A stretch of DNA of 64,000 bases, taken from assembly GCA_001782045.1 (NCBI GenBank), contig MFNK01000003.1, forward strand, positions 269,049-333,048, read 5' to 3'. This DNA comes from Candidatus Levybacteria bacterium RIFCSPHIGHO2_01_FULL_36_15b (GTDB taxonomy: Bacteria; Patescibacteriota; Microgenomatia; Levybacterales; UBA12049). The notes under the pieces are model-generated. The model saw only the letters and a program-made list of their open reading frames with translations. It ran no database searches and had not been told where the DNA came from. Positions 9,356-62,724 of this stretch are shown here, piece by piece; the stretch's first letter is position 1, and each line of letters begins with the position of its first letter. The translations under genes and the position numbers were made by a program.

Positions 9356-9380
9356 ACACAACTAACTAAATTCACATAAT

Positions 9381-9761: not shown

Positions 9762-9775
9762 ATTAAAACAATATT

Positions 9776-10435: not shown

Positions 10436-10483
10436 TATTTGAGAAATTTCTTAAAAAGAAATATAATCAAACCTTAATTCCTT

Positions 10484-19308: not shown

Positions 19309-19310
19309 AT

Positions 19311-20417: not shown

Positions 20418-20424
20418 TATTTAG

Positions 20425-34508: not shown

Positions 34509-34510
34509 TT

Positions 34511-36151: not shown

Positions 36152-37677
36152 TGTTCAATTCTTGTTTGTATAACTACTCCACTAGGCAATGTGTAAGACT
36201 TGATTATTTTCCCATTTTTTTCTCTATCCCTAAGCCACCATTTTGGCCTATCCTCGTAACCCGGATCTGGCTCTATTATAAAAAAAGAATATGTAGCATC
36301 CTTAGTTTCTTCAGTTGGAAGATATTTATATTTTTTTTCTCCATACCACATAAATAAATATCTATACGTGTAATCAAAAACTGGGGGAGTATATGCTACA
36401 AATTTAAAATCCTTGCCGTTTGCTTCTTTATAGACGTAATCAACCACTGCAAGCTGATTCCTATACACAGATGCATTACCTATAAATTGTGGGCTCATGA
36501 ATGACTTTAGTTGTCGTATTGGATCGAAATTAATAATAAATAATAACGACACGGCTAAAATGATTAAATATTGATATTTTTCTTGCTTTGGAATCATAAA
36601 AAGCGCTAGCGTAAATAATAAAATATAAATAACCGGAAGTCCTACGAGATAATGTGGCCACAAAGCTCTGCCAAACGAAATTGTTCCAATAAAGAAAACA
36701 ATAAGAATAGTAAAGAGTGTGATCATAAATTTTTTAAAAATTTCACTTGATCTTTTATAAAATAAAATTGCAGATATAACTGTGAAAACAATGAATACCC
36801 AAGCAAGTATTTGGTTATTAAAGGTAAGTGAGGAAGCATACATATCAACAAAGGAATTAACCCTATTTTCTACAAGTTGAGTAAAGGTAATTGGGTCTTC
36901 TATCGTATTCTTGCTTGTAATAAATGTTATTAAAGATTTGCTCATCTGAAAACCGTGTTTTATTTCAAAAAAAATTCTTGGAGAAGCAATTAAAATCATT
37001 CCTAATGCAAATGAAAATATTTGTTTGATTTTGATTTTTTTATAAAGAAGGAAAAAGAGTGACAGTATGGTACCAATTGTAAATAGAATACCCCAAAGGA
37101 TTTCTATATCTATATTTAATGCAAGCAAGATCCCAAGAAAAAAGAAATATCTTAAATCTTTTTTTTCAAATTTATAGATTTTATATAAGCAATAAAGCGT
37201 TAACATAACAAATAAAGGCGCTATGTTAGGATTCCAAATCTGAACAGATAATGAAACTAAAACAGGAGAAACGCTAACGAATGCGGCAAGCCCCAAGCCT
37301 AAAAAAATTCCATCTATTTTTTTTCCTAAAATGTAAGAGACAATAATGGATGCAACGCCTACTATAGCCATTATTAAAGCAATTCCAGCGGGATCGCCTC
37401 TAAAAATAATGAAAAATGGAACGAGCATGTAGTACCACCAAGGACCATAAAATACTCCTGGAATTCCGGTCGTTGCGCCTATAAACATTAGATCATGGTT
37501 TACTACAATATTCTGCAATGCGAGCATGTCGCGCCCTACGTCATATGTAAACGCAAAAGAATTAGTTAGTACTCCTTGAAGCCTTAAAAAAGAACCAACA
37601 ATAACTAAAAGAAATAAAATTACCAGTTCTTTTTTAAAAATAATTTTTTTAAAGTCCATAAGCTTAGGTACCTGCAA
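36148..37677 (-). CDS. Family B polytopic membrane glycosyltransferase (ArnT-like; DVGRD variant)
   Basis: ...FAFTYDVGRDMLALQNIVVNHDLMFIGATTGIPGVFYGPWWYY.... 509 aa. Confidence 0.7.
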   Translation of the reverse strand: MQVPKLMDFKKIIFKKELVILFLLVIVGSFLRLQGVLTNSFAFTYDVGRDMLALQNIVVNHDLMFIGATTGIPGVFYGPWWYYMLVPFFIIFRGDPAGIALIMAIVGVASIIVSYILGKKIDGIFLGLGLAAFVSVSPVLVSLSVQIWNPNIAPLFVMLTLYCLYKIYKFEKKDLRYFFFLGILLALNIDIEILWGILFTIGTILSLFFLLYKKIKIKQIFSFALGMILIASPRIFFEIKHGFQMSKSLITFITSKNTIEDPITFTQLVENRVNSFVDMYASSLTFNNQILAWVFIVFTVISAILFYKRSSEIFKKFMITLFTILIVFFIGTISFGRALWPHYLVGLPVIYILLFTLALFMIPKQEKYQYLIILAVSLLFIINFDPIRQLKSFMSPQFIGNASVYRNQLAVVDYVYKEANGKDFKFVAYTPPVFDYTYRYLFMWYGEKKYKYLPTEETKDATYSFFIIEPDPGYEDRPKWWLRDREKNGKIIKSYTLPSGVVIQTRIEQ

Positions 37678-39331
37678 CTCTAATTACCGGCGTGCCGTCG
37701 AGGTTATAAATAGTTTTTATTTCAGTGCCACTTGGAATCTCATCAGTATTCCCTATTAAAAGAGTATTAGGCATTTTAGAATCAGAAGACCAATCAATTG
37801 GCCTAAACTCATACTTACCAAAAGAATGGTGAGCTGCGTATCCACCGGCGCTATTTTGACCTATCTTTTGATACTGTTCTGGTGGGTACTTTAAATAAAA
37901 TAAAAAGAACATATATGATTTATCCATCGGCTGATCGTCCGATACAATTATTTTATCGTATTTAGTATCTAAAGCCATAGCAATGTCAACTGCCTCCTTA
38001 TAGCCATATTGCCAGTAAAAGGAGGAATAGTAATTCTGTTGAGCAAAATACTGATTAAGATAAAACATGAAATTAAACATAGCAAGCAACGCAAAGGCAC
38101 CGGTAAATAAAAGATAGGGAATTTTTCTTAAGTCTTTGCCTTTAGACCAAATTAGTAAATTTAGTGCACCAAGTGCTGCAATTATTTGCCACGTGGGTAA
38201 GAAATTAAGCGTTCTTACAGCATGAGGAACCTCGGTTGTAACTGATGCAGGCAATGGAGCGAGTAGAACCCAAGAAAAAAGAATTAGCTTTGTTTTAACA
38301 TCGATTTTTCCAAATAATAAGAAGTAAATACCAATTAAAATGAGCGGCAATTCAAATAAATACAGCATTCCCATATTTGGTGCATGATGTCTTGCAATAT
38401 CGCCTTTTAAAAATAGCCAGTTTGGGTCAAAATGTGAGATATATCCTGACACCATAGTTTTTGCATAAACTATTCTTCTGTTATCCAGGATTAAGCCTAA
38501 TTTATCATTGCGAGCCTTATCTTCCTCAAGTCTTTGAATATTATTTTTTAAAAGCTCCGTTTGATATGAAAAAATACTTGTTCCTGTAACCCGCAAAAGA
38601 GCGGCGCTGTTGGTAAAAATATAAAAAACCATAGGAAACACTAATAGTAATCCCAATAAAAACGATGAAGATAGATATTTTTTGCTAATAGAAAATAGTT
38701 TTTTCCTATAAATTAAGATAAGTGCTAAAACCAAAAGTGGAGTGAAGACCTTTTCACTTTGATATGCATAAATAGAAAAAGCTGCAAAAGATGCTGCCAG
38801 CATTAAAAATTTAGGTTTTTGTAGACCTTTAATAAAAAATAGTACTGTTAGAATATTTAATACGGCTCCGACATTTGCTTCAAATCCTACCCTTGAAAAT
38901 TGCAAAGACCATGGAGAAATAGCCATTAGCATTGCCGATATCAATGCTGTAATTTCTAATTTCCAATTTCCAATTTCCAATGAGGTCCTCAATAGTTCCT
39001 TAACTAAGAAATAGACGGCAATTACGGAAATAATTCCAAAAATTGCCGATGGAAACCTAACTGCGAAAGTATTTAGACCAAAAATTAAGACTGATGGAAT
39101 CGTAAGATATGTATATAATGCGGGTTTATAATCGTCAAACGATCTTAAAACAACTGGTAAAAACTTTCCATATTCGTCTTTTCCTGTTTGAATTATCGAA
39201 TAAGCATTGTATGCCAACGCTGCCTCGTCCCAATCAGGCGAGGGAGGAATATCTCCAAGTTGCCAAATTCTTAAAACCCCAGCAAGGATTAATATTGCTG
39301 ACAAAATAATTAATACTAGTTTTCTATTCAT
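37664..39331 (-). CDS. Glycosyltransferase family 39-like (PMT/ArnT superfamily; PMT_2-type) membrane protein
   Basis: ...LRIWQLGDIPPSPDWDEAALAYNAYSIIQTGKDEYGKFLPVVLRSFDDYKPALYTYLTIPSV...RFPSAIFG.... The DE motif in loop 1 is the hallmark of PMT/ArnT. Confidence 0.8.
   Translation of the reverse strand: MNRKLVLIILSAILILAGVLRIWQLGDIPPSPDWDEAALAYNAYSIIQTGKDEYGKFLPVVLRSFDDYKPALYTYLTIPSVLIFGLNTFAVRFPSAIFGIISVIAVYFLVKELLRTSLEIGNWKLEITALISAMLMAISPWSLQFSRVGFEANVGAVLNILTVLFFIKGLQKPKFLMLAASFAAFSIYAYQSEKVFTPLLVLALILIYRKKLFSISKKYLSSSFLLGLLLVFPMVFYIFTNSAALLRVTGTSIFSYQTELLKNNIQRLEEDKARNDKLGLILDNRRIVYAKTMVSGYISHFDPNWLFLKGDIARHHAPNMGMLYLFELPLILIGIYFLLFGKIDVKTKLILFSWVLLAPLPASVTTEVPHAVRTLNFLPTWQIIAALGALNLLIWSKGKDLRKIPYLLFTGAFALLAMFNFMFYLNQYFAQQNYYSSFYWQYGYKEAVDIAMALDTKYDKIIVSDDQPMDKSYMFFLFYLKYPPEQYQKIGQNSAGGYAAHHSFGKYEFRPIDWSSDSKMPNTLLIGNTDEIPSGTEIKTIYNLDGTPVIRVAGT
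38951..38978. repeat. Heptanucleotide tandem repeat (AATTTCC)x4, first unit imperfect, inside the coding sequence of 37664-39331
   Basis: aatttct aatttcc aatttcc aatttcc (28 bp). It encodes ...SLEIGNWKLEITAL... on the minus strand. Confidence 0.7.
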
Positions 39332-40950
39332 CTTGTATATGCTACCAAAGCCGGTACTCCGTTAAGTAAATAGAAAGTTTTTAAAATAGTAATATCTTCC
39401 GGTAATTTGTATGGAGTATTAATATACAGAACTTTACTAGAAGAACCGCGAGAATAATCATAGTTTTCCGGAAACAAATACTTTCCTACCTTTTCCACTT
39501 TTACAAATCCAAAAGCTTCTCTTTTAATTTTTGAGCTATTTCTAAATTCTTCTGGGCTTGATTTATTATAAAAAAGGTAATAAATATAAGGCCTGCCAAG
39601 GGCAGTGGTAACTTGGATATAGTCATAGTTTTTTTCTACAGACTTAACATAATCAACTGACTGTTTATAACCGAATTGCCATTCTCCAGAGTATGCCTTA
39701 GGATAATGCGCATAATAGTAGTGTGAAAAGTAAGCTACATTAACAAACAACAATGCAAACAATACCCCATAAACTGCTTTTTTATATCTATTAATCATTT
39801 CAAACACGCTTACGAATCCAAAAGCAGCTATTATTTGGAAAGCAGGAAGAGTCGTTTCTATTCTTAAAGCATGAGGGGTTTCTCTTGCAGTTGCTGCAGG
39901 AAGTATGCCTATTAAAATCCATAATGGTATGATCCACCAATTTCCCTCTCTTTTTCTAAATAACAAAAATATTCCACCCACAAAGAAGATAATGTCCCAA
40001 ATATACATTTGCCCTACTTCTTGTGTAGAAAATTTTGGATTTCCGTCTCCTTTTATAAATAGAAAACTAGGCGACAAGTTATCAAGGTAATGCTTTGCAA
40101 AATCTAATGAATATAAAACTCTTCTATTATTGAGTAACTTAGACCATAAGGCGTTATTATCATTTTCAATTTGCTGATTAGCTTTTTTAACAATTTCAGG
40201 ATTACTAAAGATATTTACCTCTTTAAAACGCAATGATGCCTGAGGAGTAAGAAGAAATGGGATTAAGGGCAACAATATTAAAAGTCCAATGATAAAAGAT
40301 AAAAAAACTTGCTTTTTGTCTTGCCAAAGCACTTTTCTAAAAACAATTGCAAGTAATATAACCAAAAGCGGTGCGACTATCCTTGAAGTATTAAACGTAT
40401 GCATTGATAGCGCAAAAGAAACTGCTGAAATGATTAAATACCATTTTTTATCCTGCACTCCTGATAAAAATGCCCATATTCCCAAAACTATGAAAAAAGA
40501 GGCAACATTTGCCTCAAATGCGCCTCTTGAAAGCAAAATATGCCACGGAGAAACAGCAAGAAACAATGACGAAACCAATGCTATTAATTCTGCGTTTCTA
40601 GATTTAGAAAAAATTCTTTTAACTAAAAAATACGTTAGAAGCACAGTCAAAACACCAAAAAAAGCAGAAGGAAATCTGGTAGCAAATTCATTTAGGCCAA
40701 ATATTTTAATTGGAATTACATCTAAATAGGCATACATTACGGGCTTAAAATCACCGAATGACTCAAAATAATCAACAGGTAAAAATCTACCAAACTCATC
40801 CTTACCGTCAATCCCTAAGGAATAAGCATTGTATCCCCAAGCCGCTTCATCCCACGTAAGTGAAGGAGGGTTAGAGCTTAGTTGATAAAACCTTAAAAGC
40901 ATAGCTATGACAATGATTAAGCCTAAAATAATAAATTTATATTTTTTCAT
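39328..40950 (-). CDS. Glycosyltransferase family 39-like (PMT_2-type) membrane protein, tandem paralog
   Basis: ...LRFYQLSSNPPSLTWDEAAWGYNAYSLGIDGKDEFGRFLPVDYFESFGDFKPVMYAYL...RFPSAFFG.... Confidence 0.8.
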   Translation of the reverse strand: MKKYKFIILGLIIVIAMLLRFYQLSSNPPSLTWDEAAWGYNAYSLGIDGKDEFGRFLPVDYFESFGDFKPVMYAYLDVIPIKIFGLNEFATRFPSAFFGVLTVLLTYFLVKRIFSKSRNAELIALVSSLFLAVSPWHILLSRGAFEANVASFFIVLGIWAFLSGVQDKKWYLIISAVSFALSMHTFNTSRIVAPLLVILLAIVFRKVLWQDKKQVFLSFIIGLLILLPLIPFLLTPQASLRFKEVNIFSNPEIVKKANQQIENDNNALWSKLLNNRRVLYSLDFAKHYLDNLSPSFLFIKGDGNPKFSTQEVGQMYIWDIIFFVGGIFLLFRKREGNWWIIPLWILIGILPAATARETPHALRIETTLPAFQIIAAFGFVSVFEMINRYKKAVYGVLFALLFVNVAYFSHYYYAHYPKAYSGEWQFGYKQSVDYVKSVEKNYDYIQVTTALGRPYIYYLFYNKSSPEEFRNSSKIKREAFGFVKVEKVGKYLFPENYDYSRGSSSKVLYINTPYKLPEDITILKTFYLLNGVPALVAYTR

Positions 40951-41531
40951 TTTTCTGCTTTAAACCACATATTAAATCCTAATTCAAAATACCCGCTTTT
41001 TATATTCTTAAATCCGGTGTTTTGAACCATATCTATTATTGTTTTTCTACTATGATGGCTTTTGTGATCATGAATTTCTTCCTCAGATATTAAATTAAAT
41101 TTTGACATCTGATGTAAAAGTTTGTCAGACCATGGAGGCGGAGTGGTAATTATAAAAATACCGTTCTTTTTTAAGATTCTGTATATTTCATTTAAAACAA
41201 GTGGAATTTTCTCTTGATCTATATGTTCAAAAACAGCCAGCATTGTTATTGCATCAAAAAAATTTTCTTTGAAAGGAATTGGCTTTTGCGAAATATTGGA
41301 TTTTATTAATTTTATCCCGTCGATATTTATATTTGAAAGGGAGGGGTCGATCCCATATTTGTCTTTGAATTCTGTTTTTGTTAAGAAGTAAGGATAAAAA
41401 CCACATCCGACATCCAAAATTCTTCCCGTTCGATATCTGTTAGGTATTAAATAGTTAGCTTTTTGAGCTCTTTTTTTAGAGAGAAAGTGTTCAAGAATCC
41501 CTGAACCTCGGGTAACTTGGCCATTGGTCAT
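40947..41531 (-). CDS. Class I SAM-dependent methyltransferase
   Basis: ILDVGCGFYPYFL, LKKNGIFIITTP. Confidence 0.75.
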   Translation of the reverse strand: MTNGQVTRGSGILEHFLSKKRAQKANYLIPNRYRTGRILDVGCGFYPYFLTKTEFKDKYGIDPSLSNINIDGIKLIKSNISQKPIPFKENFFDAITMLAVFEHIDQEKIPLVLNEIYRILKKNGIFIITTPPPWSDKLLHQMSKFNLISEEEIHDHKSHHSRKTIIDMVQNTGFKNIKSGYFELGFNMWFKAEK

Positions 41532-41533
41532 AT

Positions 41534-42244
41534 TTAATCTGTGAATCTATATTTAAAAAGGTACCAGATTGCTTTGCTTCCGTCCTTTACTGCGCTTATC
41601 TTCTTTCCTTCTTCATATCCCCGCGGTTTAACCTCTATTGGAAGTTCCATAATTTTATATCCTCTTTTTAATAGCTTTGCAGTAATTTCCGGTTCAAACT
41701 CAAACCCCTTAGCATTCATTCTTACACCGTTAAGAGCAACTTTTGGAAAAAGCTTGTAGCAGGTTTCCATATCTGTTATCCATTGACCATACAAGATGCT
41801 TGTAACTAGGCTTAGGAATCTGTTTCCAAAATAATGTAGCAAAAACCTAAAAGTTTTCTCTTCTCCTGCAAGACGAGGGAGTCTTTTTATTCTCGTTCCA
41901 TAAACTACTTTTGATTTTTTTTCTAATATTGGTTTTATTAACTGCCTGATAAACTTTGGATCGTATTCCAAATCGGCATCTTGAATAATTATGTATTCCC
42001 CGGTTGAGTTTTTAATACCTGCAAGAACTGCAGCTCCTTTTCCCTGGTTTTTATCTTGCAATATGGTTTTAAAAGATTTTGATTGAAGTTTATTTAATTT
42101 TTCCCGCGTTTCATCTGTTGAGCCATCATCAACTACTATAATTTCTTTTTCAACTCCAGGAATTTTTTCGTTGATAACTTTTTTTAGAATTTCTTCTACA
42201 GTTTTTCCTTCGTTATAAACAGGAATAATTATAGATAATTTCAT
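41534..42244 (-). CDS. GT2 polyprenol-phosphate-sugar synthase (DPM1/GtrB-like)
   Basis: MKLSIIIPVYNEGKTVEEILKKV...IIVVDDGSTDETREKL, ...DADLEYDP..., ...ITDMETCYKLFPK. 236 aa, no TM. Confidence 0.8.
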   Translation of the reverse strand: MKLSIIIPVYNEGKTVEEILKKVINEKIPGVEKEIIVVDDGSTDETREKLNKLQSKSFKTILQDKNQGKGAAVLAGIKNSTGEYIIIQDADLEYDPKFIRQLIKPILEKKSKVVYGTRIKRLPRLAGEEKTFRFLLHYFGNRFLSLVTSILYGQWITDMETCYKLFPKVALNGVRMNAKGFEFEPEITAKLLKRGYKIMELPIEVKPRGYEEGKKISAVKDGSKAIWYLFKYRFTD

Positions 42245-43161
42245 TGATACTTCCTTACCACTTGTTGATCGGATAATTTGAAAATTTTAAGATTGGCATT
42301 TCTAGATTTTATAATTTTGGGCAGCATTTTTAAAGCATTAAAAAAACCTAAATTAAAAGCAGTATCCAGGTTTAGTATCGCTTTAATGAAGTGATAAGGG
42401 AGCCATAAAAAATGCTCCAGCATTAATTTAGAATCGGTTAAGTTGGTCCACGCAAATATAAATTGATTTCTGTAGGCTGTGGCCTTAACTTTGAAGGGGG
42501 AAAAGTTTCTCTTTATAGTTCCCTTTTCGTGCTCGTGAAAAACAACGCTTTCTTTTTCAAAAAGAACATCATATCCTGCTTTTTGTGCGCGATAAGACAA
42601 ATCTATATCTTCCCAATAAAAAGGTGTGTAAAGCTCGTTAAGTCCCCCTAGCTGGTCCCAAAGAGACTTTCTGAAAGCCCCACTTCCTCCACTTACCCAT
42701 AAGGTATCGCTTTTATCTACCTCTCCCCTTTTGTGAACCAAAAATCCCCTTTTCCAGGTTCCTTCCCCTCTTCCTCGCAATACTATTGTATTTTCCTCAA
42801 CGCTTTTATCCATACATCCGACTGCAAATACCTTCTCGCTTTTAAAATGATCAAGAAGGGGCTTAAGAAATCCAGACTGCGGATATACATCATTATTTAA
42901 TAGAATTAAAATTTCTCCTGTTGCGTTTTTTGCCCCTTTATTTACTGTTATCGAAAATCCTAGGTTCCTATCGTTTTTTAATAGCTTAACTTGGGAAAAA
43001 TTGCTTACCACTTTAACTGATTGGTCTGTTGATCCATCATCCACTACTATTATTTCCGCATTGCCTTCTTTGTAGTTTTCAAGTTCTTTAACAAGCTTAG
43101 GTAAATTTTTCGACAATAAATTTTGTCCCTGGTAATTTGGAATAATAATGCTTAAATTCAT
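42241..43161 (-). CDS. Glycosyltransferase family 2
   Basis: LSIIIPNYQGQNLLSKNLPKLV...EIIVVDDGSTDQS, LLNNDV, YWEDIDLSYRAQKAGY. Confidence 0.8.
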   Translation of the reverse strand: MNLSIIIPNYQGQNLLSKNLPKLVKELENYKEGNAEIIVVDDGSTDQSVKVVSNFSQVKLLKNDRNLGFSITVNKGAKNATGEILILLNNDVYPQSGFLKPLLDHFKSEKVFAVGCMDKSVEENTIVLRGRGEGTWKRGFLVHKRGEVDKSDTLWVSGGSGAFRKSLWDQLGGLNELYTPFYWEDIDLSYRAQKAGYDVLFEKESVVFHEHEKGTIKRNFSPFKVKATAYRNQFIFAWTNLTDSKLMLEHFLWLPYHFIKAILNLDTAFNLGFFNALKMLPKIIKSRNANLKIFKLSDQQVVRKYQ

Positions 43162-43162
43162 A

Positions 43163-45412
43163 TTAAAAAAGAGTGTTTTTGAAAATTATCTTATGATTTC
43201 CCTTTGGAACAATTATTCCCCTAAAATTATAATCGGTCAAGTAAATTCGAGTTGGCACACTATCTATTTCAGCTTTCCACGTAGGATAAAAACTGTCAGT
43301 TAAGACTAAATACCCTTCATTCTCGTTTCTAGTTGATATAACTATTCTATTTTCACTGTATTCATCGATAACAACTTTGCCAACGCTCCAGTTTTTGGAA
43401 AGACTTTGTGAAGCTTCTTCAATAACCGCCCTTTGCTTAAAAGGATAATCATCAAACATTAAGTTAATTGCCTCATTTTTATCACGAGCAACTGTGGTTT
43501 TTCCTACAAAAAATGCTCTATCTATTACACGCGAATTATTGTAAATTTTTGTTTGTCCCTCCTGATAAACTTTTTCTAAATACGGCTCATTTATATCCTC
43601 CAAGCTTAAGATATATTTGACTCCGAGTAGATCAATTAATGGTGACTTGAAGTTTTGAGGCGTAATAATCCTATTGAACCCAAAAGGAGGTTCTATATTT
43701 GGCTCATTCCTTCCAAGTGCTGCCATAAGCTCAGCATATCTTCGTAGATACAAAGGGTCATAACCATCCAGAGTTTGAATTTTGTAATAAGTGGCAAAGT
43801 TAGGCGGAAAAATTTCTGCACTTGTAGACATAAAACGATAATTATTTAAATTCTCTTGTAAAAAGTTAGTTGTTTTTGTACTTGGAAATAAATATTTACT
43901 TTCCGCAAAGGTTGTATATTTCCAACCGAATCTGAAAAGGTCAAATAAAGTAATAACGACAATTATAATAAATAAAGTCTGAATAGCTTTCTTATTTTCT
44001 GATATTTTCTTAATAAATAACGTCACCATTAAAACTGACGATATAAATAGAAACAAAACCGTAGGTAACATTAAATTTCTTTTGGAAACGGCTAAATTTT
44101 CAGCTGTTATAAAGTCCTTTCCAAAAACTGGAGTAAAAGCCCAAAGAGAAGAAAATAGTATGAAAATAAATGATATTATAAAAATTATTTTTTTCTTTTC
44201 TTTGGTTTTTATAAAATAATCAACTCCAATAGCTGCAAGAACGCTTAAGCAAAAATCGATTACAAACATAAGTCTTGTTGGTTGCGAAGTAGAGATAAAA
44301 GGTATAGAAAATTTATAGGGTATTTTGGCAATAATACTCGGGTAAGCAAAAATAAATGCTACCAGTAAAATAAACCAAAAGAAAGCTGTGGTTTTATCTT
44401 TTTTAAATATTGAGAATAAAGCCATTATTAAGGGGAGTATTCCTACGTATCCGACAAACTCACCATAATTAAATTCCCCAAAATAATTAAGCGTTGCGGG
44501 GTTGCCAAAAAAATCAGGTGATAGGAATTGTACGAGATTTTGCCAAGGTACAAACCAACCAGCTATATTCCAATTAACTTGATCAATTGCTCTGGCAGAA
44601 TTTTCTATAAACTGTAACGTCGGAAGCCACTGTGGCAATGCAATAATTGTGATGGTCAAAAGGTAACCAATAAATAACAAAATAATTCTCGTACTTCTAC
44701 CGTTTTCAATCCATCTAAAGATAAAGTATGCAAGAGATACAGCAAACACATATGAAAATATTTGAAGGTGCCCAGCAAAAAAAGAGAAAAGGCTTGCAGT
44801 TGCCAATACTAACCACCAAATTGAGAACCTATTAAGATTTTTTAGAATTTTATCGATAGACAATAGCATCAAAGGAAGCCAAAGCGCAGTATGTAAAATA
44901 TTTCCCCATTCAAGCCAGGCAATAGCAAACCCAGAGAATGCGAAAGTAACTGAACCAAAATACGAAGCTATTTTGCTCATTCCTAAATTTCTTAGGAAAT
45001 AAAATAGGAAAAAACAAGCAAGCAGAGGCTGCAAAAATATAAGTAAGGACCAGGATGAAGAGAAAGGAAATATTAAGAATAGAATATTTAAAGGGTAGAA
45101 TGCTCCGGATTGGAAGTTTGCCAAAAGCGGTGTTCCGGAAAAGCTATACGGGTTCCAAAGAGGAAGCTGAAGTTTTTTCTCTAAATCTAGCACCAAATTT
45201 TTCCATGAAATTTGTTGCCTAACTGGATCTGTTATCAAAAAATTTTTAAAAGGAATTCCTCTGGGATAATCTTTCGCATAAAAATCCAAATAGGGATGAT
45301 ACAAACCGACTATAGTATCAGTAGGTATAGGCAATAAACCTTTAAACAGAAATTGCCAAAAGAAAATTGTGACAGTTGCTAAAATTAATAAACCTGGCAA
45401 AAATCTATTCAT
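43163..45412 (-). CDS. YfhO-family-like GT-C membrane glycosyltransferase (749 aa)
   Basis: N-terminal ...LPLWNPYSFSGTPLLANFQSGAFYPLNILFL... matches the conserved YfhO N-terminal motif. ~13 TM plus an extracytoplasmic C-terminal domain. Paralog of 46697-49051 and 60335-62722. Confidence 0.7.
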   Translation of the reverse strand: MNRFLPGLLILATVTIFFWQFLFKGLLPIPTDTIVGLYHPYLDFYAKDYPRGIPFKNFLITDPVRQQISWKNLVLDLEKKLQLPLWNPYSFSGTPLLANFQSGAFYPLNILFLIFPFSSSWSLLIFLQPLLACFFLFYFLRNLGMSKIASYFGSVTFAFSGFAIAWLEWGNILHTALWLPLMLLSIDKILKNLNRFSIWWLVLATASLFSFFAGHLQIFSYVFAVSLAYFIFRWIENGRSTRIILLFIGYLLTITIIALPQWLPTLQFIENSARAIDQVNWNIAGWFVPWQNLVQFLSPDFFGNPATLNYFGEFNYGEFVGYVGILPLIMALFSIFKKDKTTAFFWFILLVAFIFAYPSIIAKIPYKFSIPFISTSQPTRLMFVIDFCLSVLAAIGVDYFIKTKEKKKIIFIISFIFILFSSLWAFTPVFGKDFITAENLAVSKRNLMLPTVLFLFISSVLMVTLFIKKISENKKAIQTLFIIIVVITLFDLFRFGWKYTTFAESKYLFPSTKTTNFLQENLNNYRFMSTSAEIFPPNFATYYKIQTLDGYDPLYLRRYAELMAALGRNEPNIEPPFGFNRIITPQNFKSPLIDLLGVKYILSLEDINEPYLEKVYQEGQTKIYNNSRVIDRAFFVGKTTVARDKNEAINLMFDDYPFKQRAVIEEASQSLSKNWSVGKVVIDEYSENRIVISTRNENEGYLVLTDSFYPTWKAEIDSVPTRIYLTDYNFRGIIVPKGNHKIIFKNTLF

Positions 45413-46476
45413 TCTAAAATAATTTCTTTTAATTCTCTACAAAATCTTTCGCCTGCAAAATATTCCGCTCTTTTCTTTGCTGCAATAGATAATATATTTA
45501 ACTTTCTTTCATTTTTAGCTAATTCAATAGTTTTTTTCTTTAACTCTTCAATTGAGTTCCAAAGATAACCGTTTTCTCCATCTGTTATTATTTCTTTTTG
45601 TCCACCAGCATTAATTACAACGGGTACACATCCTGCTCCCATTGCCTCAACAGTTGATATGCCAAAATGCTCGGCAAATTCGGGATGTAAATTTAAATCT
45701 TCTCCAAAACCTGTTGCGTGCCAATATATTTTAGCTTTTGAGTAAATATCCCAAAGCTCGTCATTGCTTTTATTCACCAAAAATTCAATCGGATAACCAT
45801 TTGCAATTTCTTTGATCTTATTAAAATTTTCCTCGTCCGCACTATTAAGACCAACACATAAAACAAATTTCCAGTCTTTAAAACCTCCGTCAATCATTTC
45901 TTTAAAAGACTGTACCATCATGCCTTGTCTTTTATAATCTTCGTTGTTTACCCTTGCGTCTCTAAACCTCCCCACATGGAGAATATAATTTTCCTTCTTT
46001 TCCAGTCTTGCCTTAATTTCAATAGACGGATAAAGCACTTTACTTTGAATTCCAAGCTCTTTGTCCGCGAAGCTTTTTGTAAACGTTGAATTGCAAAAAA
46101 CTGCATTTATTCGTTTGAGCTTTAAACTACTTAATAAATTTGTCCTTACATTAGGAAGCGGTTGTTGAATATGTATAAATGTTTTGTTTGATAGGGTTAC
46201 GGGGATACTTCCATCGGAAAGGAAAATTATAATATCAAATTTTTTAGTTTCAATAATCTTTTGAATAAAACTGAATTTCGAGGAAAAAATATTTTTGTAG
46301 AAATTGACTTTCGATAGATCTATTGAAAATCTCCTCGTCAAGTTCTTAAACACTTCTTGGTCGTCCCAAAATACATAAACTTCATTATCTTTAGAAAGAC
46401 AAGATGCCAATGTCATCATGTATTTTTCTCCTCCACCAATATCGTCCAAATAAGGATCGAAAATTCCTATTCTCAT
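45409..46476 (-). CDS. Glycosyltransferase family 4
   Basis: ...AEHFGISTVEAMGAGCVPVVINAGGQKEIITDGENGYLW. Confidence 0.8.
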   Translation of the reverse strand: MRIGIFDPYLDDIGGGEKYMMTLASCLSKDNEVYVFWDDQEVFKNLTRRFSIDLSKVNFYKNIFSSKFSFIQKIIETKKFDIIIFLSDGSIPVTLSNKTFIHIQQPLPNVRTNLLSSLKLKRINAVFCNSTFTKSFADKELGIQSKVLYPSIEIKARLEKKENYILHVGRFRDARVNNEDYKRQGMMVQSFKEMIDGGFKDWKFVLCVGLNSADEENFNKIKEIANGYPIEFLVNKSNDELWDIYSKAKIYWHATGFGEDLNLHPEFAEHFGISTVEAMGAGCVPVVINAGGQKEIITDGENGYLWNSIEELKKKTIELAKNERKLNILSIAAKKRAEYFAGERFCRELKEIILE

Positions 46477-46537
46477 AGACTAATTCTATCAACTTTCAAT
46501 TTTTATTGCATAAAACTAAGACCTTCTCTATAATTAA

Positions 46538-46771
46538 GTGGTGAATAATTTTCTAATTCCGCAAATTCCCTCATTGCTTCTTTTTGCAGCTTTCCTTTGG
46601 ACTTTGCTTTGGAAAGGCATAGCACTATGGAGAGCCGCCAACTTAAAACAAAAGAATTGGTTTATAGCAATTCTTGTTTTAAACACGTTAGGAATTCTAG
46701 AGCTTGTTTACTTGTTTTATTTTGCTAAAAAAAGGCTTACCATACAAGAACTTAAATTTTGGGAAAAATAA
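46538..46771 (+). CDS. Possible small 2-TM membrane protein (77 aa, GTG start), PLDc_N-like pattern
   Basis: Two hydrophobic helices (LLLFAAFLWTLLW / WFIAILVLNTLGILELVYLFYF). Its 3' end overlaps the convergent gene 46697-49051 by 75 nt, which lowers confidence. Confidence 0.3.
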   Translation: MVNNFLIPQIPSLLLFAAFLWTLLWKGIALWRAANLKQKNWFIAILVLNTLGILELVYLFYFAKKRLTIQELKFWEK

Positions 46772-49051
46772 CATTAAAATAAAACCTAGGCCTGCAAGAA
46801 AAAGTCCTAAAACAAAAGATTTAGGAAAATAATTAAACTCTATTAAATGTTCTCCTTTTGGAATAGATACTGCTCGGAACGTAAAATCACTTCGTAATAT
46901 TTCTATTTCCTTCCCATCTACAAATGCCTCCCAACCAGGGTAGAAAGGGTCTGATATGAAAAGCAAGGAATTTCCATCAGTGTTAGTTTTTATCTTTATC
47001 TTATTGGACGTATAGGTAAGTAAATTAAGTTCTCCTTTTTTAAAATTTGGTTCACTTTGGGGATCTTTTTCTAAAACGACTGTTTCTCTCAAGTTTAAAT
47101 CCTTTGTAAACATCTCGTTTAGGATTTCTTGGGAGTTTGTTTTGACAGAATATTTATCAAGAAGAAAGGCCTTAGGATAAGCTTTAATGTTCTCATAGAT
47201 TTGATAAGCTACATCATCATAAGTTAATTTAAAACTATCTGGATAATTCCAAAAAGGATACTCCCAAACAGCATTACCATCTGATTTCTTGTGAATTAAA
47301 TAATTAACTCCCAATAAGTTTAATCCCTCATCTGAATTCAGTCCGTTTTTGGGAAATGCCACGACTGAACGAGCTGCAGGCGTTAAGTCACCATTATTTA
47401 GAGACGATATGAATTCTCCGTACCTTCTATTGTATACAGCGTCATATCCTCCTATTGTCGGTACTTTATAGACTACCGAGGCTTCTGCGCCAAAATTTGC
47501 TAACGCACGATCTTTATTCTGAATTTTAGCCAACTCACTTGAAACTTGTACATTTGGATAAAAATGGCTCTTGAGAGCAAATGGCTGCCATTTAGTCGCA
47601 AATCTAAGCATATCTAATGCTGTAAGAAGAATAAGTATAAATAGAATAATATTTATTCGCCTTGTGAGTTTACTAAAAATTATAAATAAACCGATTGTGC
47701 CTAAAAACGCTACAAAAATAAGCGTAGGTAGGATTAGATTTTGCCTAGCAATAACGGATTTTTCCAAACCTAGTACTTTTAAAAACACTATTAGCCACAG
47801 AGTTATAAAAATTATTGAGATAAGTGGTAAAAAGAGTTTCAATTTTTTTAACACTTTCTCTCTTAAATCCTTTTCCAGTTTTTCATAACCAAAAGCCGCA
47901 AGAACTGCGGCCGAAAAACTAAATAAAACTATTACTCTTGAAGCAGCGCTGGTTGATAATACAGGAATTTTAAGCAATACAACTAAATTTAAAAGTGGTG
48001 TTTGAAAAGAAAGAAATATTGCAATTAATGAGGAGACTAGGAAAAAAAATATTTTTTTGTTTTTTACGTAAAATAGACTATATATAGCAAGGAGTATTGG
48101 AACAAGTCCTAAAAAGGCATTCCATTCGGCATAATGCCCATACCAGTCGTTTCTTGTAACCGGATTGCCAAAGAAGTCTGGAGCAAAAAAAGTTGCAACA
48201 TAGCTCCACGGTATTACTTCAGCTTTTTGAAAGATAGAACTTCTTAAGCTTTGAGTATATGCTTCGACAGATGGCAAAACCTGAGGCAATGTAAGTAAGG
48301 CTCCAAAAGTTAAATAAGCAAAACAGAAAAAGGTTAATTGCTTATCTCTTGTTTCATAAAGCTTAAATAATAAATAAATAACTATAAAAAAAAGAAAATA
48401 TAAACTGATCTGAAAATGTCCGCTGAAAAAAGACAAAGGAAAAGTGAGCGATAGCATAAACAAATACTTAAATTCTCTTTCACTATAATATTTCTCTATA
48501 AAAAAAAGGGCGAGCGGTAAAAAAAGTATTGCATATCCAAGCGTTGCATAACCCATCCATGAGGTAATGAAGCCGCAAAACATAAAAGACACTGCTCCTA
48601 TTAAAGATGATTGATTTCCTAATTTAAGATTTTTTAAAAAAACAAACATAAAAGTTCCTGCAAGAAGCGGCTGGAGTAAAACTAAAATACTCCATGCATC
48701 TACAAAAGGGAGTAAAAGGAATAATAAATTAAACGGTGAAAGTACTGCTGATTGATAATTGGCAAGATGTACCGTCCCGGAAAAACTATAAGGATTCCAG
48801 AGCGGAATTTCACCACTTTTTAATGTATCTATAGTAAACATTTTCCACGGGACAATCTGACCTATAACATCGGGCATAGCATTGTTTTTTACAGGTCCTG
48901 CAAAACCGGGATAAGCATTCCATGGAGAAAAGAAATTAACAAGATAATCTGAAGCAAAAGGAATTTTATTTTGAACAAAATAGGGAGCAGAAAAGATTAG
49001 CCATATAAAAAAAATAAATAGCAGTGGCCAAAATTTATTTAATAATTTCAT
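46697..49051 (-). CDS. YfhO-family-like GT-C membrane glycosyltransferase (784 aa)
   Basis: ...IPLWNPYSFSGTVHLANYQSAVLSPFNLLFL..., with a C-terminal TM LGLFLAGLGFILMLFF. Confidence 0.7.
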   Translation of the reverse strand: MKLLNKFWPLLFIFFIWLIFSAPYFVQNKIPFASDYLVNFFSPWNAYPGFAGPVKNNAMPDVIGQIVPWKMFTIDTLKSGEIPLWNPYSFSGTVHLANYQSAVLSPFNLLFLLLPFVDAWSILVLLQPLLAGTFMFVFLKNLKLGNQSSLIGAVSFMFCGFITSWMGYATLGYAILFLPLALFFIEKYYSEREFKYLFMLSLTFPLSFFSGHFQISLYFLFFIVIYLLFKLYETRDKQLTFFCFAYLTFGALLTLPQVLPSVEAYTQSLRSSIFQKAEVIPWSYVATFFAPDFFGNPVTRNDWYGHYAEWNAFLGLVPILLAIYSLFYVKNKKIFFFLVSSLIAIFLSFQTPLLNLVVLLKIPVLSTSAASRVIVLFSFSAAVLAAFGYEKLEKDLREKVLKKLKLFLPLISIIFITLWLIVFLKVLGLEKSVIARQNLILPTLIFVAFLGTIGLFIIFSKLTRRINIILFILILLTALDMLRFATKWQPFALKSHFYPNVQVSSELAKIQNKDRALANFGAEASVVYKVPTIGGYDAVYNRRYGEFISSLNNGDLTPAARSVVAFPKNGLNSDEGLNLLGVNYLIHKKSDGNAVWEYPFWNYPDSFKLTYDDVAYQIYENIKAYPKAFLLDKYSVKTNSQEILNEMFTKDLNLRETVVLEKDPQSEPNFKKGELNLLTYTSNKIKIKTNTDGNSLLFISDPFYPGWEAFVDGKEIEILRSDFTFRAVSIPKGEHLIEFNYFPKSFVLGLFLAGLGFILMLFFPKFKFLYGKPFFSKIKQVNKL

Positions 49052-49787
49052 TTTTTTTATTTTGAAATTCCCAAAGTTTTGCGTATGTTATAAAAATACT
49101 AAAAGCTTGATAAATACTTTCTATTAGTCCTGTGCCCCTTGCCTTATATCCACCTTGCAATATGTAAGAATTGACAAAAGCAGACAACATAACTCTTGGG
49201 AATCTCCACCAACTCATTTTAGGATGATTAGCCCTTAAACGTAACTCTGCTTCAATACTAGACCAAGCAGCAGTTTTTTCAACCATTGATTCCAAGTTTT
49301 TATGAGTTTTATGTATTAAGAAACCATCAAAAATTGCAGTTTTACCCTCAACTATTGGTGTTTCGTGGATTTTACCCTCCCATCTTTTTAAATTGCCTTT
49401 TCTAAAAAGTCTTAACATCTTTTCTATATAGGGCCATTCATAATTTCCTAAATAAAAGTTTTTCCTTCTTAGATAATAAGCGCTAATGTTGTCATTTTTA
49501 ACGGCTTTGAGAATTTCACCCTTTAAAACTTCATCGCATCTTTCATCAGCATCAATATACAAAACCCAATCAAAACTCGCATGTTTAAGCCCAAAATTGC
49601 GACTCTCTGAAAAGTTAACTGTGGAGTCAATAAATACTTTTGCTCCTAAGCTTTCTGCTATTTTCTCTGTATTATCTGTTGAGCCGTTATCTACTACGAT
49701 AATTTCATCACAAAAAGATAAGTTATCAATGCAATCCCTTATATTATCTATTTCATTCTTTGCAAGAATAATCGCTGAAATTTTCAT
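49035..49787 (-). CDS. Glycosyltransferase family 2 (WaaE/KdtX-like)
   Basis: MKISAIILAKNEIDNIRDCIDNLSFCDEIIVVDNGSTDNTEKIAESLGAKV...IDADER. Confidence 0.8.
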   Translation of the reverse strand: MKISAIILAKNEIDNIRDCIDNLSFCDEIIVVDNGSTDNTEKIAESLGAKVFIDSTVNFSESRNFGLKHASFDWVLYIDADERCDEVLKGEILKAVKNDNISAYYLRRKNFYLGNYEWPYIEKMLRLFRKGNLKRWEGKIHETPIVEGKTAIFDGFLIHKTHKNLESMVEKTAAWSSIEAELRLRANHPKMSWWRFPRVMLSAFVNSYILQGGYKARGTGLIESIYQAFSIFITYAKLWEFQNKKNEIIK

Positions 49788-50692: not shown

Positions 50693-51604
50693 CTAGATTT
50701 TTATCTTTCCTCTTATTTTTTCAATATTTTTTTTGAAGGGATTTTTAATATTTTCCAATTTTTCTTTTCTTATCCAGTAATTTATATCCCGCCCATTTCT
50801 TTTGAATTCATCTTCAACTTCGGATAAAAAGTTTTCACCATTGCGCTCTACAAACCCTTTCTTTTCCCAAATAAACGCAAAAACTAAAAAATGATAAAAA
50901 GCCATCAAAAAAGACAACATTAATCCATGAAAACCGTCTTTATATCCTTTTCTCGAAAAAAACCACTTAAGAAAATCGTCAACTGGAAAGCGAATTGCAT
51001 CATAATATGAGAATTTGTATCCGTTCTTGATATATTCTTCTGCCTCATTTGGAGCATATATCATAATTTTATTTACAAACTGAGCAATAGATTCATAGTT
51101 ATGGTGAATTATGTAGCTGGATAATTTTTCCGTGTGTCCTCCTAGCTTAAGATCTTCATGAACATGCTTGCTTTCATATTTTCCTTTTCCTTTCTTGAAT
51201 AACCTCAATTGATAGTCAGGATACCATCCAGTATTTTCGCTTATCCACTTTCCAAACATAAAGTTTTTTCTTGGTATCCAATAGCCAGATGCGTCTTTTG
51301 AGTTCTTAATCACAGATTTTATTTCTTCTGCAAGCTCACTTGACACTTCTTCGTCAGCGTCTAGGCTTAATATCCAATCATTAGATACTTTATCAAAGCC
51401 GAAGTTTTTTTGAATATCTATATTTTGAGGATCGTTTTTTTGACTATAAACTTTGTCCGTATATTTTTTTGCAATTTTAAATGTATTGTCAACCGATTGA
51501 TTATCAACGAAGATAATTTCATCGACAAACTTTAAGGACCTAAGACATCTATCTATATTTTTTTCTTCATTGTATGCGCTTACGACTGCCGAAATTTTTG
51601 GCAT
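50693..51604 (-). CDS. Glycosyltransferase family 2 (WaaE/KdtX-like)
   Basis: MPKISAVVSAYNEEKNIDRCLRSLKFVDEIIFVDNQSVDNTFKIAKKY...LDADEEVS. Confidence 0.8.
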   Translation of the reverse strand: MPKISAVVSAYNEEKNIDRCLRSLKFVDEIIFVDNQSVDNTFKIAKKYTDKVYSQKNDPQNIDIQKNFGFDKVSNDWILSLDADEEVSSELAEEIKSVIKNSKDASGYWIPRKNFMFGKWISENTGWYPDYQLRLFKKGKGKYESKHVHEDLKLGGHTEKLSSYIIHHNYESIAQFVNKIMIYAPNEAEEYIKNGYKFSYYDAIRFPVDDFLKWFFSRKGYKDGFHGLMLSFLMAFYHFLVFAFIWEKKGFVERNGENFLSEVEDEFKRNGRDINYWIRKEKLENIKNPFKKNIEKIRGKIKI

Positions 51605-53062: not shown

Positions 53063-53765
53063 GATTAAAATTCAAATCTTTCCATAACGTCAAACTTTCC
53101 TTTATTGCCCTAAGAATTACCCGTAAGTTTCCCCCGCTTTGATCTCCATAAATACGTGGATAATGATGAACTTCAACTTCTAGAATTTTTAATTTTGCTT
53201 TTCTTGCCCTGGCTAAAATTTCCGTGGTTATCATAGCTCCTTCGGATGAAAGAGGAAGAATTTTATTTACTGCTTCTTTCTTAAATAGCTTAAATCCACA
53301 ATCTATATCTTTAAACCTAAATCCAAAAAATATATAGTCCCAAATCTTAAGTAGCAACATTAATAAGTGTCTAAATGGATGATCATGTCTTTTTTTCCTG
53401 AAACCTACTACTATGTCAGCGTTGTCTATTTTTTCCATAAATTTTGATATTTCCGAAAAATCAAACTGCCCATCACCGTCATTAAAAACAATATGATTGT
53501 ATCTTGATCTTTTTAACCCGGTTTTTAAAGCAGCTCCATATCCCCTGTTTTCTCCATGAGCAACCGTAATAAGTCTATTGTCTCTTTCTGATATTTTTTT
53601 CATAAGTTCTAGCGTATTGTCAGAAGATCCATCATCCACCATTATAATTTCCCATTTTTTTGCTATTTTATTAGCAACGGGAATTGCCTTATTTATAACT
53701 CTTTCCAAATTTTCTTCCTCGTTCCAAAAGGGGAAAAAGATTGATAATTCCTCAAATCTGCTCAT
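53049..53765 (-). CDS. GT2 polyprenol-phosphate-sugar synthase (DPM1/GtrB-like)
   Basis: LSIFFPFWNEEENLERVI...IIMVDDGSSDNT...HGENRGYGAALKTG, ...DIDCGFKLFKK. Confidence 0.75.
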   Translation of the reverse strand: MSRFEELSIFFPFWNEEENLERVINKAIPVANKIAKKWEIIMVDDGSSDNTLELMKKISERDNRLITVAHGENRGYGAALKTGLKRSRYNHIVFNDGDGQFDFSEISKFMEKIDNADIVVGFRKKRHDHPFRHLLMLLLKIWDYIFFGFRFKDIDCGFKLFKKEAVNKILPLSSEGAMITTEILARARKAKLKILEVEVHHYPRIYGDQSGGNLRVILRAIKESLTLWKDLNFNHARS

Positions 53766-62722: not shown

Positions 62723-62724
62723 TT

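Follow-up and report, generated by a model that had tools for sequence, protein, structure and literature searches.

A short family 2 glycosyltransferase and its methyltransferase partner in a conserved, putative extracytoplasmic glycosylation block of Candidatus Levybacteria

The DNA analyzed in this study is a stretch of 64 kilobases (kb; hereafter the window) from Candidatus Levybacteria, an uncultivated groundwater bacterium of the Candidate Phyla Radiation (CPR; Patescibacteria). Three adjacent genes in the window encode a membrane-bound glycosyltransferase of the YfhO family with the C-type fold (GT-C), a family 2 glycosyltransferase (GT2) of 306 amino acid residues and a shorter GT2 of 236 residues, referred to below as YfhO749, GT2_306 and the short GT2, respectively. 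Our results indicate that these genes are probably part of a conserved, operon-like block of Patescibacteria (Levybacteria) for glycosylation outside the cytoplasmic membrane. Judged by its sequence and predicted structure, the short GT2 belongs to the clade of polyprenyl-phosphate glycosyltransferases, in which it would represent a distinct, uncharacterised subfamily without a transmembrane domain. Its most consistent partner is an S-adenosylmethionine (SAM)-dependent methyltransferase (MTase), which was missed in a preliminary description of the window. That description had placed the three open reading frames (ORFs) correctly and assigned them to the YfhO, GT2 and GT2 families that were found with Pfam, but it read them from the short GT2 to YfhO. 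The genes are indeed adjacent. Given that they are on the minus strand, however, they are transcribed in the reverse order, from YfhO749 through GT2_306 to the short GT2. The genes of the block are as follows, in the order of transcription.

46697-49051, minus strand: second YfhO-family GT-C, 784 residues (YfhO784; Pfam YfhO, 119.7 bits).
46538-46771, plus strand: DUF5652 protein, 77 residues, two transmembrane segments (Pfam DUF5652, 75.8 bits); overlaps the 3' end of YfhO784.
45409-46476, minus strand: family 4 glycosyltransferase (GT4) with the GT-B fold, 355 residues (Pfam Glycos_transf_1); first gene past a gap of 220 base pairs (bp).
43163-45412, minus strand: YfhO749, YfhO-family GT-C, 749 residues (Pfam YfhO), with approximately 10 or more transmembrane segments and a C-terminal beta-rich, extracytoplasmic domain.
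42241-43161, minus strand: GT2_306, generic Leloir-type GT-A glycosyltransferase, 306 residues, no transmembrane segment (Pfam GT2 and Glyco_tranf_2_3).
41534-42244, minus strand: short GT2, putative polyprenyl-phosphate sugar synthase, 236 residues, no transmembrane segment (Pfam, PDB, Foldseek).
40947-41531, minus strand: class I SAM-dependent MTase, 194 residues (Pfam Methyltransf_23 and Methyltransf_11).
39328-40950, minus strand: PMT_2/PMT-type GT-C, 540 residues (Pfam PMT_2, 56 bits; PMT, 43 bits).
37664-39331, minus strand: PMT_2-type GT-C, 555 residues, paralogue of 39328-40950 (Pfam PMT_2); position kept in relatives.

From position 21204 to the end of the window, almost all genes are on the minus strand with nearly no space between them. 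YfhO749 and GT2_306 are separated by 1 bp, while GT2_306 and the short GT2 overlap by 4 bp. The junctions to the neighbours on either side are equally tight, with a 4-bp overlap between GT4 and YfhO749, a gap of 2 bp between the short GT2 and the MTase and a 4-bp overlap between the MTase and the following PMT_2 GT-C. Thus, the three genes are a slice of a longer block that resembles a transcription unit and are not self-contained. The only break in the block is the 220-bp gap upstream of GT4, which contains the DUF5652 gene. Between positions 40500 and 47500, 34 promoter-like sites (25 expected) and 4 terminator-like sites (5 expected) were detected; none of them stood at an informative position, and such a scan says little in a genome this rich in A and T. 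The G+C content of the window is approximately 32%, its base composition is uniform and it contains no tRNA gene, on which grounds nothing in the window suggests a mobile island. A protein deposited for Candidatus Levybacteria bacterium RIFCSPLOWO2_01_FULL_36_13 shares all 236 residues with the short GT2, and the same gene order was found on independent metagenome contigs and likewise in relatives with approximately 70% identity. Thus, these are real genes rather than chance ORFs.

The short GT2 matched Pfam Glycos_transf_2 at 123.9 bits. Its best sequence match in PDB was the dolichyl-phosphate mannose synthase (DPMS) of Pyrococcus furiosus (PfDPMS; 5mlz; E = 1e-21), which aligned with residues 1-214, the entire catalytic domain; the PDB matches to ArnC and GtrB covered its N-terminal half only. 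Its full-length NCBIfam matches were solely polyprenyl- or dolichyl-phosphate sugar synthases (AglJ, PpgS and haloarchaeal DPhHxTase). An AlphaFold2 model of the protein, with a predicted local distance difference test score (pLDDT) of 84 and a predicted template modelling score (pTM) of 0.83, was compared with PDB by Foldseek. The top 25 matches were all DPMS, ArnC or GtrB, with approximately 237 aligned columns and scores on the query (TMq) of 0.59-0.77, and the best chain of each of the three families scored 0.71-0.77. TarS, GpgS and other GT2 enzymes ranked lower, GpgS from rank 27 with a TMq of approximately 0.7. No transmembrane segment reached the threshold in a hydropathy scan of all 236 residues. 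These results bear out the earlier description of the protein as soluble and similar to DPM1/GtrB.

The residues of the active site were also largely conserved. The DxD motif D89-A-D91 of the short GT2 aligns with D89-A-D91 of PfDPMS. In addition, E12, D40 (D39 of DPMS), R118 (R117), D158 (D154) and F181 (F177) were kept, and R208, E212 and K214 correspond to R202, E206 and K208 of the PfDPMS acceptor loop, whose pattern is Arg...Gly-Glu/Asp-Ser-Lys. All of these were invariant in 36 homologs. The roles of the PfDPMS residues, including that of R117 in placing the acceptor phosphate, have been described (PMC5526996). In the model, a hydrophobic and aromatic helix (residues 132-152) and an aromatic and basic C-terminal helix (residues 218-234) occupy the positions of the interface helices of DPMS, although their helical hydrophobic moment is modest. 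The modelled helices suggest that the short GT2 may associate monotopically with the membrane. Similar to the short GT2, human DPM1, GacI and PpgS are synthases without a transmembrane domain; for instance, GacI is active and binds membranes unaided, without its partner GacJ (10.1101/180810).

The MTase gene adjoins that of the short GT2 not only in the window. Orthologs of this MTase are adjacent to short GT2 genes in the loci L005 to L007, in L019 of Woesearchaeota and in L075 of Yanofskybacteria, and a related type of MTase is encoded by the next downstream gene in L012, L021 and L068. Moreover, in four loci of Acidobacteriota (L045, L051, L066 and L067) an MTase is fused to the C-terminus of the short GT2. 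A class I SAM-dependent MTase was adjacent or fused in a total of 12 of 83 loci, which belong to CPR bacteria, Woesearchaeota, Anaerolineae, Acidobacteriota and others.

The order of the whole block was conserved as well. In relatives whose short GT2 is 68-73% identical to that of the window, the genes encode a GT2 (250 residues), a YfhO (780), the DUF5652 protein on the opposite strand, a GT4 (355), a YfhO (750), a GT2 (306), the short GT2 (236), a SAM-dependent MTase of approximately 195 residues and several PMT_2 GT-Cs. This order, including the position of GT4, was kept in L005 to L007, L009 and L011, and the DUF5652 gene occupied the corresponding site in L006 and L007. In L009 and L011, where the identity was 53-56%, the order recurs but no MTase match was found downstream of the short GT2. 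An extra gene for 656 residues separates GT2_306 from the short GT2 in L005, whereas the short GT2, MTase and PMT_2 genes stay contiguous. Orthologs of 39328-40950 were identified downstream with identities of 60-71% in L005 to L009 and 48% in L011. L009, L010 and L011 come from bins titled "uncultured Gammaproteobacteria", whose long gene order is of the CPR type and whose proteins are 44-63% identical to those of the window; these bins are probably mislabelled Patescibacteria.

To extend the comparison beyond close relatives, the family of the short GT2 was collected by phmmer from the whole library and represented by clusters at 50% identity, which yielded 1,709 representative clusters at E ≤ 1e-30. 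The neighbourhoods of 80 genome loci with identities of 42-60% were inspected; they belong to Chloroflexota, Acidimicrobiia, Acidobacteriota, Melainabacteria, Planctomycetota, Woesearchaeota and other groups. A YfhO-like gene was found within 10 kb in 12 of these loci and any detectable GT-C in 17, and the GT-C-bearing loci include some from Anaerolineae, Acidobacteriota, archaea and bins labelled Heliomicrobium. Pfam searches and counting of transmembrane segments turned up further PMT_2 or unassigned polytopic neighbours, of which those in L021 and L075 matched no family.

Domain fusions were counted in the best 150 of the 1,709 representatives, 39 of which were long proteins with multiple domains. 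Fifteen of these 39 carried a class I MTase domain, five a PMT_2 domain, four a GT4 domain and one a GtrA/DPMS transmembrane domain (GtrA_DPMS_TM), and approximately 12 had at least four transmembrane segments outside the GT2 domain. The fused membrane domain of one representative, P0300, is homologous to the GT-C half of 30547-32859 in the window (E = 2.6e-73), and that of another, P0263, is homologous to 28997-30550 (E = 1e-34). The fusion partners, namely MTase, PMT_2 GT-C and GT4, thus mirror the neighbours of the short GT2 in the window, and no other computational evidence speaks as strongly for a role of the short GT2 in supplying GT-Cs and of the MTase in the same pathway. In particular, the fusions to PMT_2 GT-C and GtrA_DPMS_TM domains lend indirect support to a putative transfer of the sugar to polyprenyl or dolichyl monophosphate. 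Together with the GT-C neighbours in several phyla, they lend good support to the earlier proposal of a synthase of lipid-linked sugars feeding GT-Cs.

The same fusions bear on the alternative that the short GT2 and the MTase make, for example after the fashion of GpgS or GmaR, a methylated glycoside that is soluble or bound to protein and that the vicinity of GT-Cs is a coincidence. GpgS is among the Foldseek matches, the short GT2 lacks a transmembrane segment, most of its distant homologs have no GT-C neighbour and two acceptor residues of DPMS, R131 and S135, are not conserved. However, the top 25 structural matches and all of the full-length sequence matches are polyprenyl-phosphate glycosyltransferases, the acceptor-loop motif of DPMS/ArnC is kept and members of the family are fused to polytopic GT-C and GtrA_DPMS_TM domains. 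A non-lipid acceptor is considered highly improbable.

The protein encoded by 43163-45412 matched Pfam YfhO at 78.1 bits (cut-off, 28.5 bits), possessed approximately 10 transmembrane segments in a hydropathy scan and had no NCBIfam match. Its N-terminal module is polytopic, has the GT-C fold and carries a conserved acidic residue in extracytoplasmic loop 1, so that its earlier assignment as a YfhO-like GT-C holds. D32 and D62, just past the first transmembrane helix, did not vary among the window's three groups of YfhO paralogues and their orthologs, and the catalytic acidic residues of GT-C enzymes usually sit at that location. The first extracytoplasmic loop was poorly modelled. The C-terminal 150 residues were modelled confidently as a beta-rich domain, and similar extracytoplasmic domains that bind acceptors have been suggested for other YfhO proteins (PMC8035078). 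Among the structures closest to the model were those of the oligosaccharyltransferases STT3B, PglB and AglB. YfhO784 shared 30-35% identity with its two YfhO paralogues in the window.

GT2_306 matched Pfam Glycos_transf_2 at 94.9 bits as well as Glyco_tranf_2_3. Its NCBIfam matches, such as MftF and EpsD, were all below their thresholds, its PDB matches covered the N-terminal half only and no transmembrane segment was found in a hydropathy scan. GT2_306 is, as far as its sequence tells, a generic cytoplasmic glycosyltransferase of the Leloir type; as a GT-A enzyme without a transmembrane segment, it is not a flippase. The placement of YfhO, GT2_306 and the short GT2 was kept in CPR relatives. 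A gene similar to that of GT2_306 stood directly behind the short GT2 in 9 of the 80 loci, from CPR bacteria, Acidimicrobiia and one archaeon; such a gene follows the short GT2 in L016, L036, L039, L056, L065 and L078.

These results also bear on the proposal of the preliminary description that the three genes form a complete counterpart of the CsbB/GtcA/YfhO system, which adds N-acetylglucosamine (GlcNAc) to teichoic acid in Bacillus subtilis, Staphylococcus aureus and Listeria. In its literal form, the three genes would be a self-contained trio whose short GT2 works exclusively for the neighbouring YfhO. In both systems, a YfhO GT-C is encoded near a member of the GtrB/DPM1 clade of GT2s, and the donor would be expected to be a lipid-linked monosaccharide. 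Moreover, the order YfhO, GT2, short GT2 is kept in CPR relatives, YfhO-like genes recur near homologs of the short GT2 in other phyla and gene pairs of the csbB-yfhO type are a known pattern (PMC8035078). However, the middle gene encodes a third glycosyltransferase of the GT-A type, whose lack of transmembrane segments leaves the trio without a flippase; GtcA belongs to the GtrA family, and no GtrA- or GacJ-like (DUF2304) small membrane protein was found among the ORFs of the 64-kb window, in which the DUF5652 protein is the sole small membrane protein. Different from CsbB, which is anchored by C-terminal helices, the short GT2 possesses no such anchor. The insertion in L005 separates the supposed trio while leaving the short GT2, MTase and PMT_2 genes together. 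No YfhO domain was detected in the 39 long representatives, whose Pfam-detected GT-C fusions were all of the PMT_2 type; for this reason, a pairing of the short GT2 with YfhO specifically is less well supported than one with PMT_2-type enzymes. Finally, the MTase is the tighter partner and the block extends on both sides, so that the trio is not a bounded unit. A literal equivalent of CsbB/GtcA/YfhO is therefore quite unlikely, and the claim of a complete module could not be upheld for these genes. CPR bacteria are not known to make teichoic acids, so the acceptor must also differ from that of the CsbB system.

Based on homology, predicted fold and domain fusions, the short GT2 would bind the membrane monotopically and load a single sugar onto polyprenyl phosphate on the cytoplasmic side. 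The MTase, given its conserved adjacency and fusion, would act in the same pathway and most likely methylate either the sugar on the lipid or the glycan that is made from it. The lipid-linked sugar would then be flipped across the membrane, for which the two Wzx-like proteins of the MOP family in the gene array are the candidates. Finally, one or more GT-Cs would use it as the donor to modify an envelope polymer or a surface protein; the candidates are YfhO749 upstream and the PMT_2 enzymes downstream, and the short GT2 may serve the latter as much as the former. GT2_306 would contribute to this pathway as an ordinary glycosyltransferase of the cytoplasm. By analogy, a single donor may serve several GT-Cs, for which there are precedents in Listeria and mycobacteria (PMC8035078; PMC3485146).

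Several observations weigh against this mechanism. All members of the clade to which the short GT2 belongs are biochemically uncharacterised. Its NCBIfam scores were far from the equivalog cut-offs, reaching 116 of 325 bits for AglJ, 53 of 370 bits for PpgS, 59 of 529 bits for ArnC and 73 of 500 bits for PgfS; as every cut-off was missed, its sugar specificity is not inferable from these matches. Of the catalytic residues that the preliminary description had named for verification, the DxD motif is kept, whereas the metal-coordinating glutamine of DADLQ is replaced by the invariant Glu93. The resulting DADLEY motif was found in 110 of the 150 best family representatives; the change is conservative in sequence, and the metal could still be bound. 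R131 and S135, the acceptor residues of DPMS, have no clear aligned counterpart, in place of which the invariant G140-N141-R142...S145 was found. Aligned pairwise, the MTase of the window shows only weak similarity to the fused MTase domains (E = 0.007), and the two are bridged solely by the protein of L021, which matches both types; their kinship is deduced from shared Pfam families, their equivalent position and this bridging protein. No flippase gene is adjacent to the genes in question, and the YfhO as well as the PMT_2 candidates may be the consuming GT-C. In addition, 63 of the 80 loci had no detectable GT-C nearby, and most of the distant homologs were surrounded by unrelated genes, a setting that is frequent for housekeeping donor synthases.

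The GT2, GT4 and MTase genes of the block could also be accounted for by a pathway similar to the Agl pathway of Haloferax volcanii (AglJ, AglG/I/E, AglP, AglR, AglS and AglB). In that pathway, a DPM1-like GT2 begins the glycan on a lipid carrier with a single phosphate, after which additional GT2s lengthen the chain and a SAM-dependent methyltransferase modifies it; a Wzx-like flippase factor and GT-C transferases are also involved (PMC3871713). Accordingly organised, the short GT2 would start on polyprenyl phosphate like AglJ, GT2_306 and GT4 would extend the glycan on the same carrier, the MTase would modify it like AglP, a Wzx-like protein would flip the lipid-linked oligosaccharide and YfhO749 would hand over the complete chain to a protein or polymer. 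AglJ is the best NCBIfam match of the short GT2, and the homolog in L066 reached 133 bits against the same model. The conservation of an ordinary GT2, a GT4 and an MTase within the block would be explained, and the GT2_306-like genes directly behind the short GT2, the four GT4-domain fusions among the 39 long representatives and the oligosaccharyltransferases STT3B, PglB and AglB among the structural neighbours of the YfhO model point in the same direction. However, GT2 and GT4 are common in any glycan cluster, which makes their presence weak evidence. The AglJ match remained far under the threshold, and characterised YfhO-family enzymes move single sugars from monosaccharides linked to undecaprenyl phosphate (C55-P; PMC8035078). 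Moreover, the organism of the window is a bacterium, no homolog of AglB/STT3 was found in the window and AglP methylates a hexuronic acid of a tetrasaccharide, a substrate to which nothing points for the MTase of the window. Assembly of a whole oligosaccharide on the carrier is thus regarded as unlikely, and the preferred reading remains the one in which the short GT2 loads a single sugar for the GT-Cs.

Variants of multi-component transmembrane glycosylation have been reviewed (PMC8035078). By analogy, the one closest to this single-sugar reading would be GacI/GacJ/GacK/GacL, which adds the GlcNAc side chain to the group A carbohydrate of Streptococcus pyogenes. GacI is a GtrB-like GT-A enzyme without a transmembrane segment that makes a C55-P-linked sugar, and the Gac system uses a flippase of the Wzx type rather than GtrA together with a GT-C of the PMT_2 type. 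All three kinds of proteins are encoded in the window in a co-directional array and may work together in a similar way. Wzx-like proteins have been proposed as flippases in the cases of GacK and AglR. Different from the Gac system, the window contains no DUF2304 partner (GacJ/Rv3632), a family that was also not among the 25 families listed for the fusion partners, and its Wzx candidates are not next to the three genes. In addition, the block of the window contains the conserved MTase, additional GT2 and GT4 enzymes, many GT-Cs instead of one and DADLEY in place of DADLQ.

The mycobacterial synthases PpgS (with Rv3632), MtxS (Rv0539) and Ppm1 also appear close, PpgS and MtxS in particular. They are short, soluble and DPM1-like, and their polyprenyl-phosphate sugars are used outside the membrane by GT-Cs, in the case of Ppm1 by many GT-C mannosyltransferases. 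No methyltransferase is known to be coupled to them. Different from these systems, the short GT2 scored far below the cut-off of the PpgS model and the window lacks a detectable homolog of Rv3632/GacJ. In mycobacteria, one donor can feed many GT-Cs (PMC3485146).

In the Pgf system of Streptococcus mutans (PgfS, PgfM1, PgfM2 and PgfE), which glycosylates surface proteins, a GtrB-like GT2 acts together with membrane glycosyltransferases that resemble YfhO. Two YfhO paralogues of the window matched PgfM1/PgfM2 with their C-terminal domains, but these matches were short and far below the threshold; YfhO749 had none, and the PgfS model of 308 positions aligned with no more of the short GT2 than its N-terminal 139 residues. 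Thus, the kind of mechanism proposed here is already known, and it is the constant coupling to an MTase, the DADLEY variant of the active site and the very large complement of GT-Cs that would distinguish the system of the window.

Further candidates for synthases, flippases and GT-Cs are distributed over the window as follows.

51608-53062, minus strand: candidate flippase of the Wzx/MOP family, 484 residues, 11 transmembrane segments (Pfam Polysacc_synt_3, 163 bits).
53049-53765, minus strand: second short GT2, ArnC-like, 238 residues, DGDGQ motif kept (ArnC, E = 6e-23, residues 5-217).
53762-57054, minus strand: two PTPS_related/PMT_2-type GT-Cs of 555 and 545 residues, overlapping each other and the ArnC-like gene (Pfam, transmembrane segment counts).
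23832-24584, minus strand: third short GT2, DPMS-like family, 250 residues, motifs degraded (PfDPMS, E = 2e-13, residues 4-211).
24597-25853, minus strand: second candidate flippase, Wzx-like, MOP family, 418 residues, 12 transmembrane segments (Pfam Polysacc_synt_3 and Polysacc_synt).
49035-49787, minus strand: GT2 of the GmaR/SunS type, 250 residues, overlapping the start of YfhO784 (PDB, GmaR 1.1e-20 and SunS 3e-10).
2-1855, 2813-4993, 14826-17048, 28997-40950, 43163-49051, 53762-63975 and beyond: GT-C-like genes; the first and last ORFs are cut off by the window boundaries.

Among the proteins of the window, the three short GT2s have one another as their nearest paralogues. The second one is similar to ArnC throughout its length, matched ArnC of NCBIfam at 85 bits, below the threshold, and kept the arginine of the acceptor loop as well as the glutamine of DGDGQ. 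The flippase candidate, whose gene overlaps it downstream, matched NCBIfam models for MOP flippases and for Wzx of O-glycosylation, both below their thresholds. Together with the two GT-C genes upstream, they make 51608-57054 the only contiguous set of synthase, flippase and GT-C in the window, with overlapping reading frames, and this set fits the term "complete module" better than the genes at 41534-45412. The third short GT2 aligned with PfDPMS with the substitutions of E12 by Q, D91 by G and R117 by K and without an arginine or lysine in its acceptor loop. Given that most of its catalytic and acceptor-loop residues were lost, its function as a canonical synthase is doubtful, and it may be inactive or catalyze a different reaction. 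The preliminary description had seen the same logic recur at both places and had counted three donor synthases. The genes are present and the motifs of the ArnC-like protein are kept, so that two of the synthases are well supported; the third, which lost the second aspartate, the acceptor arginine and the acceptor-loop residues, is not.

Two additional genes were considered as synthases and rejected. The protein of 49035-49787 is of the GmaR/SunS type and does not represent a fourth DPM1-like synthase. The 330-residue protein of 6292-7284 (plus strand), with two C-terminal transmembrane segments, had generic GT2 matches in PDB and NCBIfam mainly in its N-terminal half, with DPMS at 1e-4 only, and is not clearly of the classical CsbB/GtrB type. 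GmaR/SunS-like paralogues were identified at 49035-49787, at 50693-51604 and as the N-terminal domain of 30547-32859, and they are paired or fused with GT-Cs. The last of these genes, on the minus strand, encodes a fusion of 770 residues that consists of a GmaR/SunS-type GT2 and a PMT_2-type GT-C domain. In P0300, the same family of GT-C is preceded by a short GT2 of the DADLEY type instead. Comparison of the two proteins shows that two types of GT-A enzymes share one position before one family of GT-Cs.

The earlier impression of a large set of extracytoplasmic transferases was borne out, as the window holds approximately 17 GT-C-like polytopic genes in five paralogue families: three YfhO genes, a PMT_2 group of four to five, three PTPS_related genes, a third PMT_2-like group of three plus the fusion and a pair of approximately 730 residues without a Pfam match. 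A protein of 380 residues with nine transmembrane segments (26899-28041, minus strand), which matched neither Pfam nor NCBIfam, is possibly a Wzy- or ligase-like polymerase. No priming phosphoglycosyltransferase was detected by Pfam in the window. Genes for nucleotide sugars at 7316-11710 and 17265-21207 encode Gmd (above its equivalog cut-off), RmlD, an Fcl-like reductase, a WbuC-type cupin, a formyltransferase, a LegC/PseC-like aminotransferase and a sugar C-methyltransferase (Methyltransf_14). Their sequences suggest a formamido and/or C-methyl deoxyhexose, and the ArnC-like protein of 53049-53765 would be a natural candidate for loading a formamido sugar onto the lipid. Outside the window, a gene for a protein of 114 residues with four transmembrane segments, similar to EamA/TMEM234, was found between the genes of the MTase and the short GT2 homolog in L019 (3360-3704). 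Its flanks encode a PMT_2 GT-C and a protein with a short match to the STT3/PglB core (31.4 bits, residues 249-288). The protein resembles the small flippase subunits of the ArnE/ArnF type and, by analogy, is a candidate flippase for the family.

CPR/Patescibacteria comprise a large, uncultivated share of bacterial diversity, and the chemistry of their envelopes is essentially unknown; a literature search for CPR/Patescibacteria in combination with YfhO, GT-C, PMT or ArnT found nothing relevant. The approximately 17 GT-C genes in 64 kb point to extracytoplasmic glycosylation on a very large scale that depends on lipid carriers. A more far-reaching interpretation, offered tentatively and with little expectation that all of it holds, is that the DADLEY clade, with approximately 1,700 clusters at E ≤ 1e-30 in CPR, DPANN, Chloroflexota, Acidobacteriota and others, forms an obligate and often fused pair with the SAM-dependent MTase. 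The product of the pair would be a sugar methylated while still on the lipid carrier, a new kind of donor that is modified before GT-Cs install it on the envelope, and in CPR bacteria it would feed the battery of approximately 17 GT-Cs that builds a major, undescribed glycan of the envelope. The synthase of 236 residues and the MTase of 194 residues are small, soluble to express and approximately 70% identical across many CPR lineages, which makes them a testable pair that could show which sugar is used and whether methylation of lipid-linked sugars precedes their export. Because the GT2-MTase pair and the fusions to GT-Cs occur in many other phyla, one biochemical characterisation would annotate thousands of genes that are now labelled as "glycosyltransferase family 2" or, probably wrongly, as "dolichol-phosphate mannosyltransferase".

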